A stretch of 5,623 nt of DNA from Escherichia coli (GTDB lineage: Bacteria > Pseudomonadota > Gammaproteobacteria > Enterobacterales > Enterobacteriaceae). Shown here one piece after another: positions 2 through 5,623 of the stretch. Position 1 is the stretch's first letter, and each line of letters begins with the position of its first letter. The stretch lies in NCBI RefSeq assembly GCF_003334385.1, contig NZ_QOWN01000080.1. One strand, written 5' to 3'. Both the position numbers and the translations under genes were made by a program. Under the pieces are notes generated by a model, which did no database searches, was not told the DNA's origin, and saw nothing but the letters and a program-made list of their open reading frames with translations.

Positions 2-748
2 CAGGCACGGGCACAGAACGCGCAGTATCTGAGCGAACGCCTTAAGGACCAGGCAGCCTTTTATGCCGAATCGGATGCGCAGCGTGCGGACTGGCAGAAA
101 GGGCTGCAGGAGGGGTTCAGTAACTGGGTGGATAATGCGTCCGATTACGCCTCACAGGCAGCACAGCTGGCGACGGAGGGTATCTCAGGGATGGTGAATA
201 ACATCACGGAGATGCTGAACGGGAATAAAGTGGAATGGCGCAACTGGGCCTCATCCGTACTGCAGGAAATATCAAAAGTTCTTATGAATGCCGCGATTGT
301 CAACGGGATCAAGACGGCGGCAAACAGTATGTCCGGTGCAGGAGGATTTATTGGCAGTATTGGTGACTGGCTGGGCGGTGCGGTGGCCAATGCAAAAGGC
401 GGCGTGTATACCTCGGCAAACCTGAGTGCGTACAGCAACAGCATTGTGGATACGCCCACGTACTTTGCCTTTGCAAAAGGGGCCGGGCTGATGGGGGAAG
501 CCGGACCTGAAGCCATAATGCCCCTGACCCGGGCGGCGGATGGCTCGCTGGGCGTACGTGCCGTGGGCAGGATGAACGGGAGTGCGGGTCTGGTGTATTC
601 CCCGGTCTACCACATCGCCATTCAGAATGACGGGGCCAACGGTCAGATAGGGCCGGAGGCGGCAGGCAGCCTTGTTCAGTTGATTGACCAGCGGGTGCAG
701 GCGGTGATGCTGTCCATGCGACGAGACGGAGGAATGCTGAGTGGCTGA
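2..748 (+). CDS. H: Tail tape-measure protein (lambda gpH-like), C-terminal part; 5' end lies upstream of the window
   Basis: Frame 2 is open from position 2 to the TGA at 746-748 (the ORF track reports only the 128..748 part). Gly/Ala/Ser-rich C-terminus typical of tape-measure proteins. Position immediately upstream of an M homolog, with H stop overlapping M start. Assignment rests on synteny and recalled similarity, not a search. Confidence 0.7.
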   Translation, partial: QARAQNAQYLSERLKDQAAFYAESDAQRADWQKGLQEGFSNWVDNASDYASQAAQLATEGISGMVNNITEMLNGNKVEWRNWASSVLQEISKVLMNAAIVNGIKTAANSMSGAGGFIGSIGDWLGGAVANAKGGVYTSANLSAYSNSIVDTPTYFAFAKGAGLMGEAGPEAIMPLTRAADGSLGVRAVGRMNGSAGLVYSPVYHIAIQNDGANGQIGPEAAGSLVQLIDQRVQAVMLSMRRDGGMLSG

Positions 749-1082
749 GATAAAAACGCTGCATCTGGTCCCGCGTGAAGGGATGCAGGTGAGTGAGAAA
801 CCGTCGGTGGTGAGGGTCCGGTTTGGTGACGGTTATGAACAGCGCCGACCGACGGGACTGAATGCCCGACTGAAGACATTTCAGGCAGTGTTCCGGGTGA
901 CGGATGAGGCGACCCGGCGCTGGCTGGATGAATTTTTATCGTGGCATGGTGGTTACCGTGCCTTTTTGTGGAAACCCCCGAAACATAACCGGACGGTCAG
1001 GGTGGTGTGCCGGGAGTGGAGTATTACGGATAACGCCAGGTACAGCGATTTCAGTTGTATGATGGAACAGGTAATAAGATAA
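741..1082 (+). CDS. M: Minor tail protein M (lambda gpM-like)
   Basis: 113-aa ORF. GTG start at 741 preceded by GGAGGAA (728-734). Contains VRFGDGY and GLNA-LKT motifs that I recall from lambda M. Start overlaps the H stop, suggesting translational coupling. Confidence 0.8.
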   Translation: MAEIKTLHLVPREGMQVSEKPSVVRVRFGDGYEQRRPTGLNARLKTFQAVFRVTDEATRRWLDEFLSWHGGYRAFLWKPPKHNRTVRVVCREWSITDNARYSDFSCMMEQVIR

Positions 1083-1288
1083 GTTTTTGAGAAAAAACCT
1101 AAAAGCATCGTTTATTAATTTGCTTGCTTGTTATTTTTGTTTTGTCTTGACATAAAGTGCTATCAAAGTTGTTTTTTTACATTTTGAAACAAAATAAAAA
1201 TTGAACCCGTAATTTAATTTACAATATTTTGAGTTTTGTTCATGACATCTCTATGCATGAATAGTTCAGTTTAAATAAGGATTAAATC
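1083..1288 (+). promoter_or_regulatory. AT-rich upstream region of the porin gene; probable promoter/regulatory region
   Basis: Sharp drop in GC relative to M. TTGACA at 1147-1152 and TTGAAC/TACAAT-like hexamers at 1201-1225 are present but none has ideal spacing. Shine-Dalgarno AAGGA at 1278-1282 precedes the porin ATG. The exact promoter cannot be fixed from sequence alone. Confidence 0.35.
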
Positions 1289-1357
1289 ATGAAAAAAATG
1301 ACAGTGGCACTTTCAGCTGTGGCAGCAGCTGTAATTTTTGCAGCGGGGGCGCAGGCT
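1289..1357 (+). other. Predicted Sec signal peptide of the porin (cleavage after AQA)
   Basis: Basic N-terminus (MKK), hydrophobic core, A-x-A site directly before the conserved mature porin N-terminus AEVYNK. Confidence 0.6.
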
Positions 1358-2452
1358 GCAGAAGTATACAATAAAGATGGCAATAAACTTGATGTGTATG
1401 GGCGTGCAACTGCACTCCATTATTTCTCCAGTGATAAGGGGGATGATGGAGATAAGACATACGCACGTCTGGGCTTTAAAGGTGAAACTCAGATTAATGA
1501 CCAGTTGACTGGTTTTGGTCAGTGGGAATATCAGTTCTCTGGTAATAAAGCTGAATCAGAGGGTGCTGCGGGTAATAAAACCCGTCTTGCATTTGCAGGT
1601 CTGAAGTTTGGTGAGTTTGGCACCATTGATTATGGTCGTAACTATGGTATTGCGTACGATGTTGGTTCTTATACTGACGTATTACCAGAGTTTGGCGGTG
1701 ATGGCTGGACCCAGACCGATAACTTCATGACAGCCCGTACTTCCGGGGTATTAACCTATCGTAATACAGATTTCTTTGGGCTTGTCGATGGCCTGAATTT
1801 TGCGGCACAGTACCAGGGTAAAAATGATCGGGGTGATCTCCGGAAAGCTAATGGTGATGGTCACGGTTTCTCAGCCAGTTATGAATATGAAGGTTTTGGT
1901 ATCGTTGCCGCATATATTAATGCGGACCGAACCAATAATCAGGAAAAAGGTCTGAATGGTACTCTGACGATTGAACAAACTGATCCTTTAACCGGTAAAG
2001 TGACTGAAAAGCAGATCGTTGTTGATTCCGGTAGTGTTGCAAAAGGTAAACACGCTGAGATGTGGGGAGTCGGACTAAAATACGATGCTGACAACCTTTA
2101 CCTGGCTACAACATATTCCGAAACTCAGAATCTGACGACCTTTGGTGATAAAGGAGTTGCAGATAAAGCGCAAAACTTTGAAGCGGTACTGCAGTATCAG
2201 TTTGATTTCGGTCTGCGTCCATCTCTGGCATTCCTGCAGTCTCGTGCTCAGGATGTCATTGTAGGTGGTAAAAACTATGGTGACCAGGATTTGGTTAAGT
2301 ATGTTGACGTAGGTGCGAAATATTACTTCAATAAAAATATGTCCACCTATGTTGATTATAAAATCAATCTGGTTGATGAGAATAAGTTTACCAGGGATGC
2401 GGGCATTGCAACGGATGATATCGTTGCTGTTGGTATGACTTATCAGTTCTGA
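1289..2452 (+). CDS. General bacterial porin, OmpC/OmpF/PhoE family, prophage-encoded (moron)
   Basis: 387-aa ORF with an RBS. Predicted signal peptide [23 protein letters not shown], then mature N-terminus [15 protein letters not shown], nearly identical to the enterobacterial OmpC N-terminus as I recall it. L3-loop PEFGG motif present. C-terminal ...YQF with terminal Phe typical of beta-barrel OMPs. AT-rich codon usage unlike the flanking tail genes. Confidence 0.9.
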
Positions 2453-2471
2453 TGATTACTGGTAAATAAAT

Positions 2472-2526
2472 ACAGGCCATCTGCCCTCACAGATGGCCTG
2501 TATCAGTGGAAGTTATATTTCCACTG
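2472..2526 (+). repeat. Two adjacent perfect hairpins in the porin 3' UTR
   Basis: Hairpin 1: ACAGGCCATCTG (2472-2483) pairs with CAGATGGCCTGT (2490-2501), 12-bp stem and 6-nt loop. Hairpin 2: CAGTGGAA (2504-2511) pairs with TTCCACTG (2519-2526). Neither is followed by a T-run on the + strand, so they look like stabilising or processing stem-loops rather than canonical terminators. Confidence 0.5.
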
Positions 2527-2610
2527 GTCACTGCGATCAGCTATTAGCTGATTTAATTTTCATTTTATTACCTTCATCGTTTTTGATTTTTTAATTGAAC
2601 TATTTTATCA

Positions 2611-2634
2611 GGGGCGCATTGCGCCCCTTTTTTT
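2611..2634 (+). terminator. Rho-independent terminator closing the porin cassette
   Basis: GGGGCGC-ATT-GCGCCCC stem-loop (2611-2627) followed by TTTTTTT (2628-2634). Lies 15 nt upstream of the L start codon. Confidence 0.75.
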
Positions 2635-2648
2635 ATGGGTGGATGTTT

Positions 2649-3347
2649 ATGCAGGAGATCAACGAAGAAAGCCTGAATGAGTCGGTTAAATCAGAGCAGT
2701 CACCGCGGGTGGTACTCTGGGAAATTGACCTGACGGTGCAGGGTGGTGAGCGGTATTTTTTCTGTAATGAGCTGAATGAAAAAGGGGAGCCGGTCACCTA
2801 GCAGGGGCGGAAGTACCAGGCATACCCGATTGACGGCAGCGGCTTTGAGATGAACGGGAAAGGGAGCAGTGCCCGCCCGTCACTGACGGTGTCGAATCTG
2901 TTCGGGCTGGTTACCGGGATGGCGGAGGATTTGCAGAGCCTGGTGGGGGCCACGGTGGTTCGTCGCCGGGTGTATGCGCGTTTTCTGGATGCGGTGAATT
3001 TTGTGGCAGGCAATCCGGAGGCTGACCCGGAGCAGGAGCTGACGGACCGCTGGGTGGTGGAGCAGATGTCGCAGCTCACAGCCATGACGGCCTCGTTTGT
3101 GCTGGCGACACCGACGGAGACGGACGGTGCGTTGTTTCCCGGCCGCATCATGCTGGCGAACACCTGTATGTGGACCTACCGCTCTGATGAGTGTGGTTAC
3201 ACGGGCGGGGCGGTGGCGGATGAGTTCGATAAACCCACCACCGATATCCGTAAGGACAGATGCAGCAAGTGCATGCGCGGGTGTGAACTGCGCAGGAATG
3301 TCGGCAATTTTGGCGGTTTCCTTTCCATTAATAAACTTTCGCAGTAA
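2649..3347 (+). pseudogene. L: Minor tail protein L (lambda gpL-like) interrupted by an in-frame amber codon at 2799-2801
   Basis: ATG at 2649 (MQEINEESLNE...) to TAA at 3345-3347 is 699 nt, matching the lambda L length as I recall it. One TAG at 2799-2801 splits it into 2649..2801 and the track ORF 2850..3347, but the 16 codons between the stop and the next ATG (QGRKYQAYPIDGSGFE) continue in frame and read as tail-protein sequence. The track ORF start at 2595 would span the terminator hairpin and is rejected. Confidence 0.7.
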
Positions 3348-4679: not shown

Positions 4680-4692
4680 AACATAAAAAAAT

Positions 4693-4717
4693 CCCGCAGT
4701 GATCGCGGAGCTGCGGG
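4693..4717 (-). terminator. Probable intrinsic terminator oriented for minus-strand transcription
   Basis: Inverted repeat CCCGCAG (4693-4699) and CTGCGGG (4711-4717). On the minus strand the stem is followed by T7 (plus-strand A-run 4685-4691). No T-run follows it on the + strand. Confidence 0.45.
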
Positions 4718-4788
4718 GACAGACAAATGAAGATTAATGTTAAGGAGTTGTTTTTGTTACTCGGGCAAAAAAACACTAACGCAGCGAA

Positions 4789-4816
4789 ATTATAAGCGCC
4801 ACAGTCAGTGTGTGAA
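4789..4816 (-). promoter_or_regulatory. Candidate sigma70 promoter on the minus strand (TTCACA-N16-TATAAT)
   Basis: Read on the minus strand: TTCACA (complement of 4811-4816), 16-nt spacer, TATAAT (complement of 4789-4794). Fires toward the minus-strand terminator at 4693-4717. Confidence 0.35.
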
Positions 4817-4890
4817 AATGTGAAGATATTCAGAATTTTTATGCCATTACCGGTTTTAACCAACAGGATTATCGGTGGGCATGAAAGAAA

Positions 4891-4918
4891 ACCCCGGTAT
4901 CTGCTGATACCGGGGTTT
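4891..4918. terminator. GC-rich hairpin with T-rich flanks on both strands; possible bidirectional terminator
   Basis: ACCCCGGTATC (4891-4901) pairs with GATACCGGGGT (4906-4916), 4-nt loop. Followed by TTCTGTTT on the + strand and by TTTCTTTCAT on the minus strand. Confidence 0.4.
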
Positions 4919-5021
4919 CTGTTTAGCATGGCAGAAATGTGTTTCATGCTTTTCGGGCGAAGGATATCCGACTTCTGTACGGAATGGCAAGTGGCGGTTA
5001 ATTTATTCAGGGGAAGGCTGT

Positions 5022-5623
5022 ATGGGAAAAGGTGGCGGTAAGGCACACACGCCTCGTGAGGCGAAGGATAATCTCAAATCCACGCAGATGATGAGTGTGA
5101 TTGATGCGATTGGTGAGGGACCGATAGAAGGTCCGGTGAAGGGACTGCAGAGTATTCTGGTGAACAAAACCCCGCTGACGGACACGGACGGTAATCCCGT
5201 GATACACGGTGTGACTGCGGTCTGGCGTGCCGGGGAGCAGGAGCAGACACCGCCGGAAGGCTTTGAGTCCTCCGGGGCGGAAACCGGACCAGGCGTGGAG
5301 GTGACGAAGGCAAAGCCGGTGACGCGCACCATTACGTCCGCGAACATTGACCGCCTGCGGGTGACCTTCGGGGTGCAGTCACTGGTGGAGACCACCTCAA
5401 AGGGTGACCGTAACCCGACGTCTGTCCGCCTGCTGATTCAGCTTGAGCGTGGTGGTAAATGGATGACGGAAAAGGATGTCACCATTAACGGCAAGACCAC
5501 CTCGCAGTTCCTGGCGTCGGTGATTCTGGATAATCTGCCGCCCCGGCCCTTTAACATCCGGATGGTCAGGGAGACGGCGGACAGCACCACGGACCAACTG
5601 CAGAACAGAACGCTGTGGTCGTC
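5022..5623 (+). CDS. J: Tail tip / host-specificity protein J (lambda gpJ-like), N-terminal part; continues beyond the window
   Basis: ATG at 5022 preceded by GGGGAAGG (5010-5017). N-terminus MGKGGGKAHTPREAKDNLKSTQ... and later GEQEQTPPEGFESSG, PPRPFNIRM, STTDQLQN match what I recall of the lambda J N-terminus. Frame is open to the window end. Absent from the ORF track because no stop codon falls in the window. Confidence 0.85.
   Translation, partial: MGKGGGKAHTPREAKDNLKSTQMMSVIDAIGEGPIEGPVKGLQSILVNKTPLTDTDGNPVIHGVTAVWRAGEQEQTPPEGFESSGAETGPGVEVTKAKPVTRTITSANIDRLRVTFGVQSLVETTSKGDRNPTSVRLLIQLERGGKWMTEKDVTINGKTTSQFLASVILDNLPPRPFNIRMVRETADSTTDQLQNRTLWS

Follow-up and report, generated by a model that had tools for sequence, protein, structure and literature searches.

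A complete porin gene among the tail genes of a lambdoid prophage raises the question of what such a gene does there, and which of the DNA around it belongs to it. We analyzed a stretch of 5,623 nucleotides of Escherichia coli DNA (contig NZ_QOWN01000080.1 of RefSeq assembly GCF_003334385.1; the whole stretch is called the window in the following), in which 1,566 bp of AT-rich DNA, i.e., the porin cassette at positions 1083–2648, lie between the tail genes M and L. We propose that the cassette is probably a self-contained porin-replacement module, i.e., a moron, which is a paralogue of the lc/nmpC–ipeX modules and occupies a new site between M and L.

On the plus strand, the window runs from the end of the tape-measure gene (128–748) through M, an open reading frame (ORF) of 387 aa (1289–2452), L, K and I (to 4679) to a gap of 340 bp and the start of J. 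M (741–1082, plus strand), the left flank, is a minor tail protein gene according to the ORF list, a match to PHROG 14 (E = 1e-35) and the junction alignment; its stop codon TAA ends at 1082, and the ATG of L lies at 2649. Related phages matched the window in two pieces with about 1,567 bp missing, and none of the 272 phage records covered more than 72% of it. M and L overlap by their stop and start codons in phage vB_EcoS-783R2 (M at 941–1282, L at 1282–1980 of locus L007). In the alignment, the junction without insert reads CAGGT followed by GGTGAACTGATGCAGG, the left edge in the window CAGGT followed by AATAAGATAA, and the right edge TATGG followed by GTGGATGTTTATGCAGG. The last codons of M were replaced by the insertion (VIR* in the window vs VVN* in relatives without the insert), and a Shine–Dalgarno (SD)-like GGGTGGA for L (2637–2643, plus strand) was retained at the right edge, as GGGTGGA or GGGCGGA in all allele classes described below. 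GC content was 0.24–0.33 at 1001–1300, 0.39–0.47 across the porin ORF and its 3' flank, and 0.52–0.65 in the tail genes. The two-piece alignments, the M/L overlap in vB_EcoS-783R2 and this GC profile hence bear out an earlier reading of the window, made from the sequence alone, which had described an AT-rich insert of about 1.57 kb between M and L. We rejected a mobile-element origin: terminal repeats or a target duplication were not seen at 1083 and 2648, the inverted repeats present adjoin coding sequence, and their G-U pairs suit RNA, not DNA.

The porin gene (1289–2452, plus strand) encodes a 387-aa protein of the OmpC family with Lc and NmpC as its nearest phage relatives, judged from profiles, alignments and a match to PHROG 410 (E = 5e-193). 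Removal of the signal peptide (1289–1357) gives a mature protein of 364 aa. Over residues 7–387, the protein scored 496.7 bits with the OmpC subfamily profile NCBIfam NF007841, a narrow pass of the cut-off of 484; Pfam PF00267 is on record for the identical protein, and solved OmpC structures aligned from end to end (E = 1.7e-128). Signals for export and assembly are present, i.e., a signal peptide ending in AQA before AEVYNK and a C-terminal YQF. Loop 3 carries PEFGG(D), and the constriction residues R42, R82, R132, D113 and E117 (OmpF numbering) are conserved, with K16 replaced by R. Over aligned columns, the protein is 64% identical to K-12 OmpC, 61% to OmpF and 72% to Lc/NmpC (range 68–72%). 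Compared with OmpC, loop 4 is short and loop 5 carries an insertion of 30 aa, with the loops named after the OmpF structure. A full-length OmpC-family porin with signal peptide, as predicted in the sequence-only reading, was thus confirmed, including by the profile match above the OmpC-subfamily cut-off. The Prokaryotic Genome Annotation Pipeline (PGAP) names the gene 'porin OmpC' and annotates no RNA in the cassette.

A porin occupies the M–L junction in 91–93 of 5,426 complete E. coli genomes (~1.7%) and in 91 of 15,090 places matching the tail region, and the cassette is therefore a minority state; a porin at M–L as the common ancestral arrangement, a caveat raised earlier, did not hold. 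Many carriers come from human stool or are Shiga toxin-producing E. coli (STEC) isolates. IMG/VR prophage contigs and RefSeq genomes yielded ten distinct intact porin proteins with at least four classes of untranslated regions (UTRs), i.e., A (that of the window), B, C and D. All classes sit at the same M–L junction, behind two different M types. Class D (locus L034, 1938–2267) follows a lambda-type M (MKTFRWKV...), which by eye shares well under half of its residues with the window M, and a different tape-measure protein, so that the same junction is occupied in two tail-gene lineages. Loop 5 has 0–30 extra residues among the alleles, loop 6 is variable and the barrel is conserved. The ratio of nonsynonymous to synonymous divergence (dN/dS) was 0.06–0.10 overall, at dS values of 0.55–1.4 between allele classes; outside loops 5 and 6 it was 0.04–0.09, inside them 0.11–0.41. 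The porin is under strong, long-term purifying selection with variation concentrated in surface loops 5 and 6, the pattern expected of a working gene with surface-exposed variation. We conclude that the cassette is old and recurrent, and neither recent nor a one-off. The cassette porin clade was not found in a collection of 50,697 phage genomes, where all 42 phage porins were of the Lc/NmpC type with at most 69% identity, and an exact-pattern scan of one genome per species did not find the cassette in other species. Citrobacter farmeri has a protein relative (P0012) with 82% identity. Literature searches returned no description of a porin at the M–L junction. In a prophage of E. coli G1/2, the cassette is identical to that of the window over bases 1000–2750; the annotation of this prophage marks seven genes as frameshifted (HNH endonuclease, capsid, portal, major tail, T, J and tail fibre), due either to assembly errors or to decay of a prophage whose porin has stayed intact.

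Downstream of the porin stop codon, the 3'UTR (2453–2636, plus strand) is a candidate small RNA resembling IpeX, an RNA of other prophage porins, with ~185 nt as a whole by analogy with the 167 nt of IpeX. The 185 nt after the stop fold with −67.1 kcal/mol (z = −8.5 vs shuffles), and an architecture of three hairpins, a 56-nt AU-rich single strand and a terminator is common to nine distinct sequences. Hairpin 1 (2470–2503) has a 14-bp stem formed by a 100% complementary inverted repeat (I5) with three compensated pairs; hairpin 2 (2504–2526) has a 10-bp stem with four. An invariant linker GGTCACTGC (2526–2534) directly precedes hairpin 3 (2535–2553), which has a 7-bp stem in the consensus structure, and GTCACTGC is also found in the 3'UTR of an Lc-clade variant. 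The single strand contains two segments, seed 1 (2551–2582), AU-rich, with the core UUAUUACCUUCAU at 2560–2582, and seed 2 with a U-rich stretch before the terminator (2583–2609). From their duplex energies and, for seed 2, an inverted repeat, seed 1 is predicted to be antisense to the ompC and ompF start regions and seed 2 to the cassette 5'UTR. The intrinsic terminator (2610–2635), AGGGGCGC-ATT-GCGCCCCT followed by T7, forms eight pairs, seven of them G-C, and its stem is invariant in all classes. In the consensus structure of 38 pairs, 99.1% of cells were paired vs 37–45% with the partners slid, and eight pairs were compensated by changes on both sides. Divergence of the 3'UTR (K) was 0.15 between classes A and B and 0.28 between A and C, compared with 0.55 and 1.06 at synonymous sites, i.e., about four times slower. 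The 3'UTR is hence a conserved structured RNA. Hairpins and a strong intrinsic terminator had been recognized from the sequence before; the terminator stands, whereas the hairpins, then counted as part of it, belong to the conserved IpeX-like RNA. An internal promoter for this RNA was rejected: the sole candidates (TTCCAC, 17 nt, TATTAG) are poor, and an insertion in class C breaks their conservation.

IpeX is a 167-nt RNA in the 3'UTR of nmpC/lc that is made within the porin transcript and has been reported as a repressor of ompC and ompF (PMC12197685, PMC5069750, PMC8065619). We built a covariance model (R1) from hairpin 3 through the terminator and searched 320 kb with it. The model matched the 3'UTR of an Lc variant with 35.2 bits (E = 8e-5) and DLP12 ipeX with 30.8 bits (E = 7e-4) over the full model length; these E-values are rough because calibration was short. 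Other matches in the 320 kb were sub-threshold and comprised micF and the antisense strands of the ompF, ompC and nmpC leaders. Moreover, classes C and D share AAC(T/C)TTCTGTTAT[ATAT]TACC(C)TTTATT with ipeX. By sequence and structure, the cassette 3'UTR is a homologue of IpeX. Assignment to the MicF family (RF00033) was rejected, with 28.3 bits (E = 0.49) for the window against a gathering score of 79 and no match for classes B and C; the weak window match spans the full model length, and K-12 micF scored 114.4 bits as a control. An Rfam scan of the DLP12 ipeX region gave no match.

When whole UTRs (110–196 nt) were paired with RNAduplex, long and uninformative duplexes resulted, and we used split seeds, shuffles and a genomic background instead. 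The background consisted of 60-nt windows on both strands of 100 kb of K-12 DNA (13,320 windows), and is neither the whole genome nor a true 5'UTR set. Seed 1 paired with ompC at −14 to +12 with −21.5 kcal/mol and with ompF at −22 to +9 with −21.4 kcal/mol, and in both cases none of the 13,320 windows was as good. Both duplexes cover the SD sequence and the AUG. The core at 2560–2582 paired with ompF at −20.6 kcal/mol (0 of 6,660 windows). With the cassette's own start region seed 1 reached −7.6 kcal/mol, the background median, and values for phoE, ompA and nmpC were unremarkable. The yardstick ranks the true MicF–ompF pair first (−27.4 kcal/mol, 0 of 13,320), with MicF and ompC at background level. 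For the ompC leader, the class C seed gave −24.9 kcal/mol at −31 to −4 and the IpeX seed −26.1 to −26.7 kcal/mol at −32 to +10, each with 0 of 13,320 windows. The complementary part of IpeX is the segment AACCTTCTGTTATATATTACCCTTTATTTTT (DLP12, locus L004, 868–965, minus strand), which resembles the 5' end of MicC. The single strand of the 3'UTR thus shows an unusual degree of complementarity to host ompC and ompF around their ribosome-binding sites and starts. The host strain of a prophage 99.6% identical to that of the window has kept its chromosomal ompC, with a leader identical to that of K-12.

The AT-rich upstream region (1083–1288, plus strand; GC 0.24–0.33) presumably comprises the regulatory region and 5'UTR. 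Its identity between allele classes is 62–76% and rises to 77–93% in the last 60 nt before the ATG. At 1177–1196, an OmpR-box-like sequence, TTTACATTTTGAAACAAAAT, matches at 16 of 20 bases the box TTTACATTTTGAAACATCTA upstream of K-12 ompC, which we take to be OmpR site C1, and the boxes are in register in the alignment. All four allele classes retain TTTACATT(T/C)T, and the form conserved across classes is TTTACATTTTG(A/T)(A/T)AC. A −10-like hexamer, TACAAT (1220–1225; TAAAAT in classes B and C), is conserved 24 bp downstream and aligns with a region that we presume to be the −10 element of ompF. The leader that follows, GACATC...AATAGTTCA...AAGGA, is homologous to the ompF and nmpC leaders. 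We infer an OmpR-dependent promoter with a start near 1232. Of the moron architecture assumed in the sequence-only reading, the insertion, the foreign composition and the terminator stood, and for the promoter a conserved OmpR-box-like sequence and a −10-like hexamer were found in place of a sigma-70 consensus. The cassette hence has the extra DNA, the deviating base composition and the terminator of its own by which morons are recognized.

The proposed porin-replacement module would work as follows. In a lysogen, the cassette would be transcribed from its own promoter, probably dependent on OmpR, up to its own terminator, and the phage porin would be exported to the outer membrane and assemble there. 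Together with Hfq, the 3'UTR, either entire or after processing, would serve as an antisense RNA against ompF and ompC and prevent their translation, and the phage porin would take the place of the host porins in the outer membrane. A likely payoff would be a changed surface, on which phages and colicins no longer find OmpC and OmpF as receptors, and a changed permeability. The second arm of the RNA may pair with the cassette 5'UTR just upstream of its ribosome-binding site. Replacement of the host porin had been guessed at earlier, and the IpeX-like RNA would supply a mechanism for it. For IpeX, an effect in trans on OmpC and OmpF has been reported (PMC5069750), and in a lysogen the expression of NmpC from prophage Perceval exceeds background 10-fold (PMC9928086).

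Several points weigh against the porin-replacement module. Reviews hold that simple complementarity is not how IpeX acts on ompC (PMC12197685). Duplex energies carry little weight as evidence where the RNAs are AU-rich, and here they refer to the restricted background given above. With the G+C-containing arm of hairpin 3 included, ompC had rank 13 and ompF rank 4 among the 6,660 windows. With the whole 64-nt single strand, scores of the cassette's own leader came close to those of the host targets (−22 to −28 kcal/mol), so that the phage's own mRNA may not be spared. The covariation comes from nine related sequences of about four lineages. In the upstream region, a consensus scan for sigma-70 promoters over 1050–1300 gave no match, and the OmpR box of the cassette is a sequence resemblance only. 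Finally, gene L in the window contains an amber codon, and the window itself may be a decaying copy.

The different targets of the seeds permit a wider reading, i.e., that the 3'UTRs of prophage porins contain a re-targetable silencing RNA. On one scaffold, the guide would have changed targets, with IpeX and classes C and D directed at the ompC leader and classes A and B, as MicF mimics, at the ompF/ompC start, and the second arm would form a 5'–3' closed loop that couples or protects translation of the phage porin while the host porins are shut off. We put this forward tentatively, as possible and on the doubtful side.

The conserved RNA also bears on another explanation, a moron that provides an extra surface porin and nothing else, in which the 3' hairpins and the terminator would just stabilize and end the mRNA. 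Stable 3' hairpins are common mRNA stabilizers, and the single strand looks like an inverted copy of a porin leader, from which complementarity to all porin leaders, its own included, would follow by descent and shared leader ancestry. However, the AU-rich single strand diverges much more slowly than synonymous sites, although no structure is needed there, and the core seed is without a partner in the cassette mRNA, yet its ompF match beats all 6,660 background windows. Together with the trans activity reported for its homologue IpeX, this makes an extra porin without a silencing RNA unlikely in our view.

Pairing between the two ends of the cassette mRNA offers a further explanation. The 5'UTR segment AATAGTTCAGTTTAAA (1260–1275, plus strand), whose homologue in the leaders of ompF and nmpC is AATAGTTC, is complementary to 2589–2604 of the 3'UTR (inverted repeat I3, 16 nt, 88%); the duplex has −15.2 kcal/mol, and three of 6,660 background windows were as good. 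Classes B and C have versions of both sides that match each other (CAATTAAAA with TTTTAATTG and CAGTTTAAA with TTTAAATTGG, respectively), and the wobble pairs of this helix work solely in RNA of the plus strand. A second helix, of 2549–2565 with 1273–1289, would lie over the cassette's own SD sequence. The 3'UTR might hence act mainly on the cassette mRNA, by 5'–3' pairing for stability or translation, or by feedback through a 3' fragment. Against such a self-directed RNA stand the most conserved core, UUAUUACCUU, which has no partner in the cassette leader, a mismatch of the 5'–3' helix in class A and a true double change at one position only, and the action of IpeX in trans. Support for the 5'–3' helix, which may serve a closed loop or feedback, is modest; as the main role of the 3'UTR, we regard action on its own mRNA as distinctly improbable. 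At loci L018 and L019, the upstream region and leader of class A are joined to a class C 3'UTR; recombination inside the cassette hence shuffles 5' and 3' parts, and may be the source of the class A mismatch.

The cassette and the tail genes point in the same direction, and the sequence contains no obstacle to late transcription running into the cassette from M. Read-through of terminators by the Q-modified late transcript is established lambda biology, and read-through of the cassette terminator would be expected in lytic growth. The porin might thus be cargo of the lytic cycle, expressed mainly from the Q-antiterminated late transcript and altering the envelope of the dying cell or stopping progeny from adsorbing to debris. 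We consider this very improbable: the conserved upstream region and strong terminator of the cassette are a moron layout, a porin assembled late in infection would have little time to matter, and the related nmpC is expressed in a lysogen (PMC9928086). Least credible, and disfavoured, is an inactive relic that decays without current function, for the amber codon in L and one genome (H50) with the porin annotated as two fragments are set against ten distinct intact alleles with dN/dS of 0.06–0.10 and conserved UTRs.

Other features of the window and its relatives touch the cassette less directly. At its left edge, the new 3' end of M made by the insertion (AGGTAATAAGAT, 1069–1080) is 92% complementary to the core seed at 2562–2573 and resembles the porin ribosome-binding region, which may be chance or a trace of the arrival of the cassette. 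On the right flank, tail gene L (2649–3347, plus strand, from the ORF list) has the amber codon TAG at 2799–2801, where 23 related loci have TGG and lambda L has Trp; the source prophage is hence probably tail-defective, unless this is a sequencing error. The I–J gap (4680–5040), with its 340 unannotated bp, is also present in relatives without the porin. Its minus strand carries a near-consensus promoter (TTCACA, 16 nt, TATAAT; 4816 to 4789, 11 of 12 bases) and an intrinsic terminator (4709 to 4693) with a T-run, which would delimit a candidate RNA of ~95 nt; this RNA had no match in Rfam and a fold z of −1.3 only. The gap also holds a G+C-rich hairpin (~4890–4920) between A and T runs, like a two-way terminator. 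In the near-identical prophage (locus L227), the last 260 aa of J (14023–17553) have phage PhiR12_5 as their sole match (99.6%), and their identity to lambda-type J proteins does not exceed 46%, due to which OmpC or OmpF could not be linked to the carrier phage as its receptor. Downstream of J, this prophage has a side-tail-fibre-like gene and a gene for a protein with a YadA C-terminal domain, maybe another moron. Searches of anti-phage defence libraries gave no PADLOC match.

If our reading is correct, the combination of a phage porin with an RNA against host porins is not peculiar to PA-2 and DLP12, and would be a reusable module that has reached a second lambdoid site and diversified there. 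It yields base-pairing predictions, i.e., of the cassette RNA on ompF at −22 to +9 and on ompC at −14 to +12, and of IpeX on ompC at −32 to +10. Should the guide indeed be re-targetable, the long-standing statement that IpeX acts without complementarity would need revising. Also, with a second gene labelled 'ompC' in ~1.7% of complete E. coli genomes, predictions of antibiotic permeability or of phage and colicin susceptibility can go wrong when they are based on porins, and if the RNA works as predicted, the effective porin set of a lysogen would differ from what its chromosome suggests.

Among known systems, the morons lom and bor of lambda, both expressed from the prophage, are outer-membrane protein genes of foreign composition that lie among late genes with their own signals, lom in the tail region, and the cassette has the same kind of layout. 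Lom, however, is a small barrel of the Ail/Lom family encoded after J, whereas the cassette encodes a 16-strand general porin between M and L; we know of no regulatory RNA associated with lom. Chromosomal OmpC belongs to the same family as the cassette porin, and both genes have an OmpR-box-like sequence upstream. The two proteins are 64% identical and differ in loops 4 and 5, their genes differ in the leader, and the cassette adds a second gene beside the resident ompC. MicF likewise measures ~90–110 nt and has a terminator after a single-stranded 5' part. It shares with the cassette RNA the core UUUAUUACC(G/U)UCAU, complementary to AUGAGGGUAAUAAA of ompF, and this MicF-like core is found in classes A and B. 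In contrast to MicF, which is encoded divergently upstream of chromosomal ompC, the cassette element shares the strand of the phage porin and follows it, and it is predicted to pair with ompC as well, which MicF does not.

Closest to the cassette is the IpeX module, i.e., lc of phage PA-2 and nmpC of the cryptic prophage DLP12, likewise a prophage-borne general porin with its own regulatory region and a long 3'UTR that extends for ~165–185 nt from the porin stop codon to a Rho-independent terminator. In DLP12, this 3'UTR also consists of three hairpins, an AU-rich single strand antisense to host porin leaders, and the terminator, and the lc/nmpC 5'UTRs share GACATC...AATAGTTCA with that of the cassette. 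The modules differ in location: the cassette lies at the M–L junction on the strand of the late operon, whereas lc and nmpC are flanked by Q and the lysis genes and lie on the opposite strand. Their place near Q and lysis, stated already in the sequence-only reading, is seen in the DLP12 order quuD–nmpC–essD. The cassette porin clade is distinct from Lc/NmpC and has a long, variable loop 5. The seed of classes A and B has diverged from that of IpeX and is predicted to cover the SD sequence and AUG of ompF and ompC, whereas IpeX and classes C and D would cover the ompC leader at −32 to −4. Finally, unlike in IpeX, about 35 nt between seed and terminator of the cassette RNA are predicted to pair with the cassette 5'UTR.

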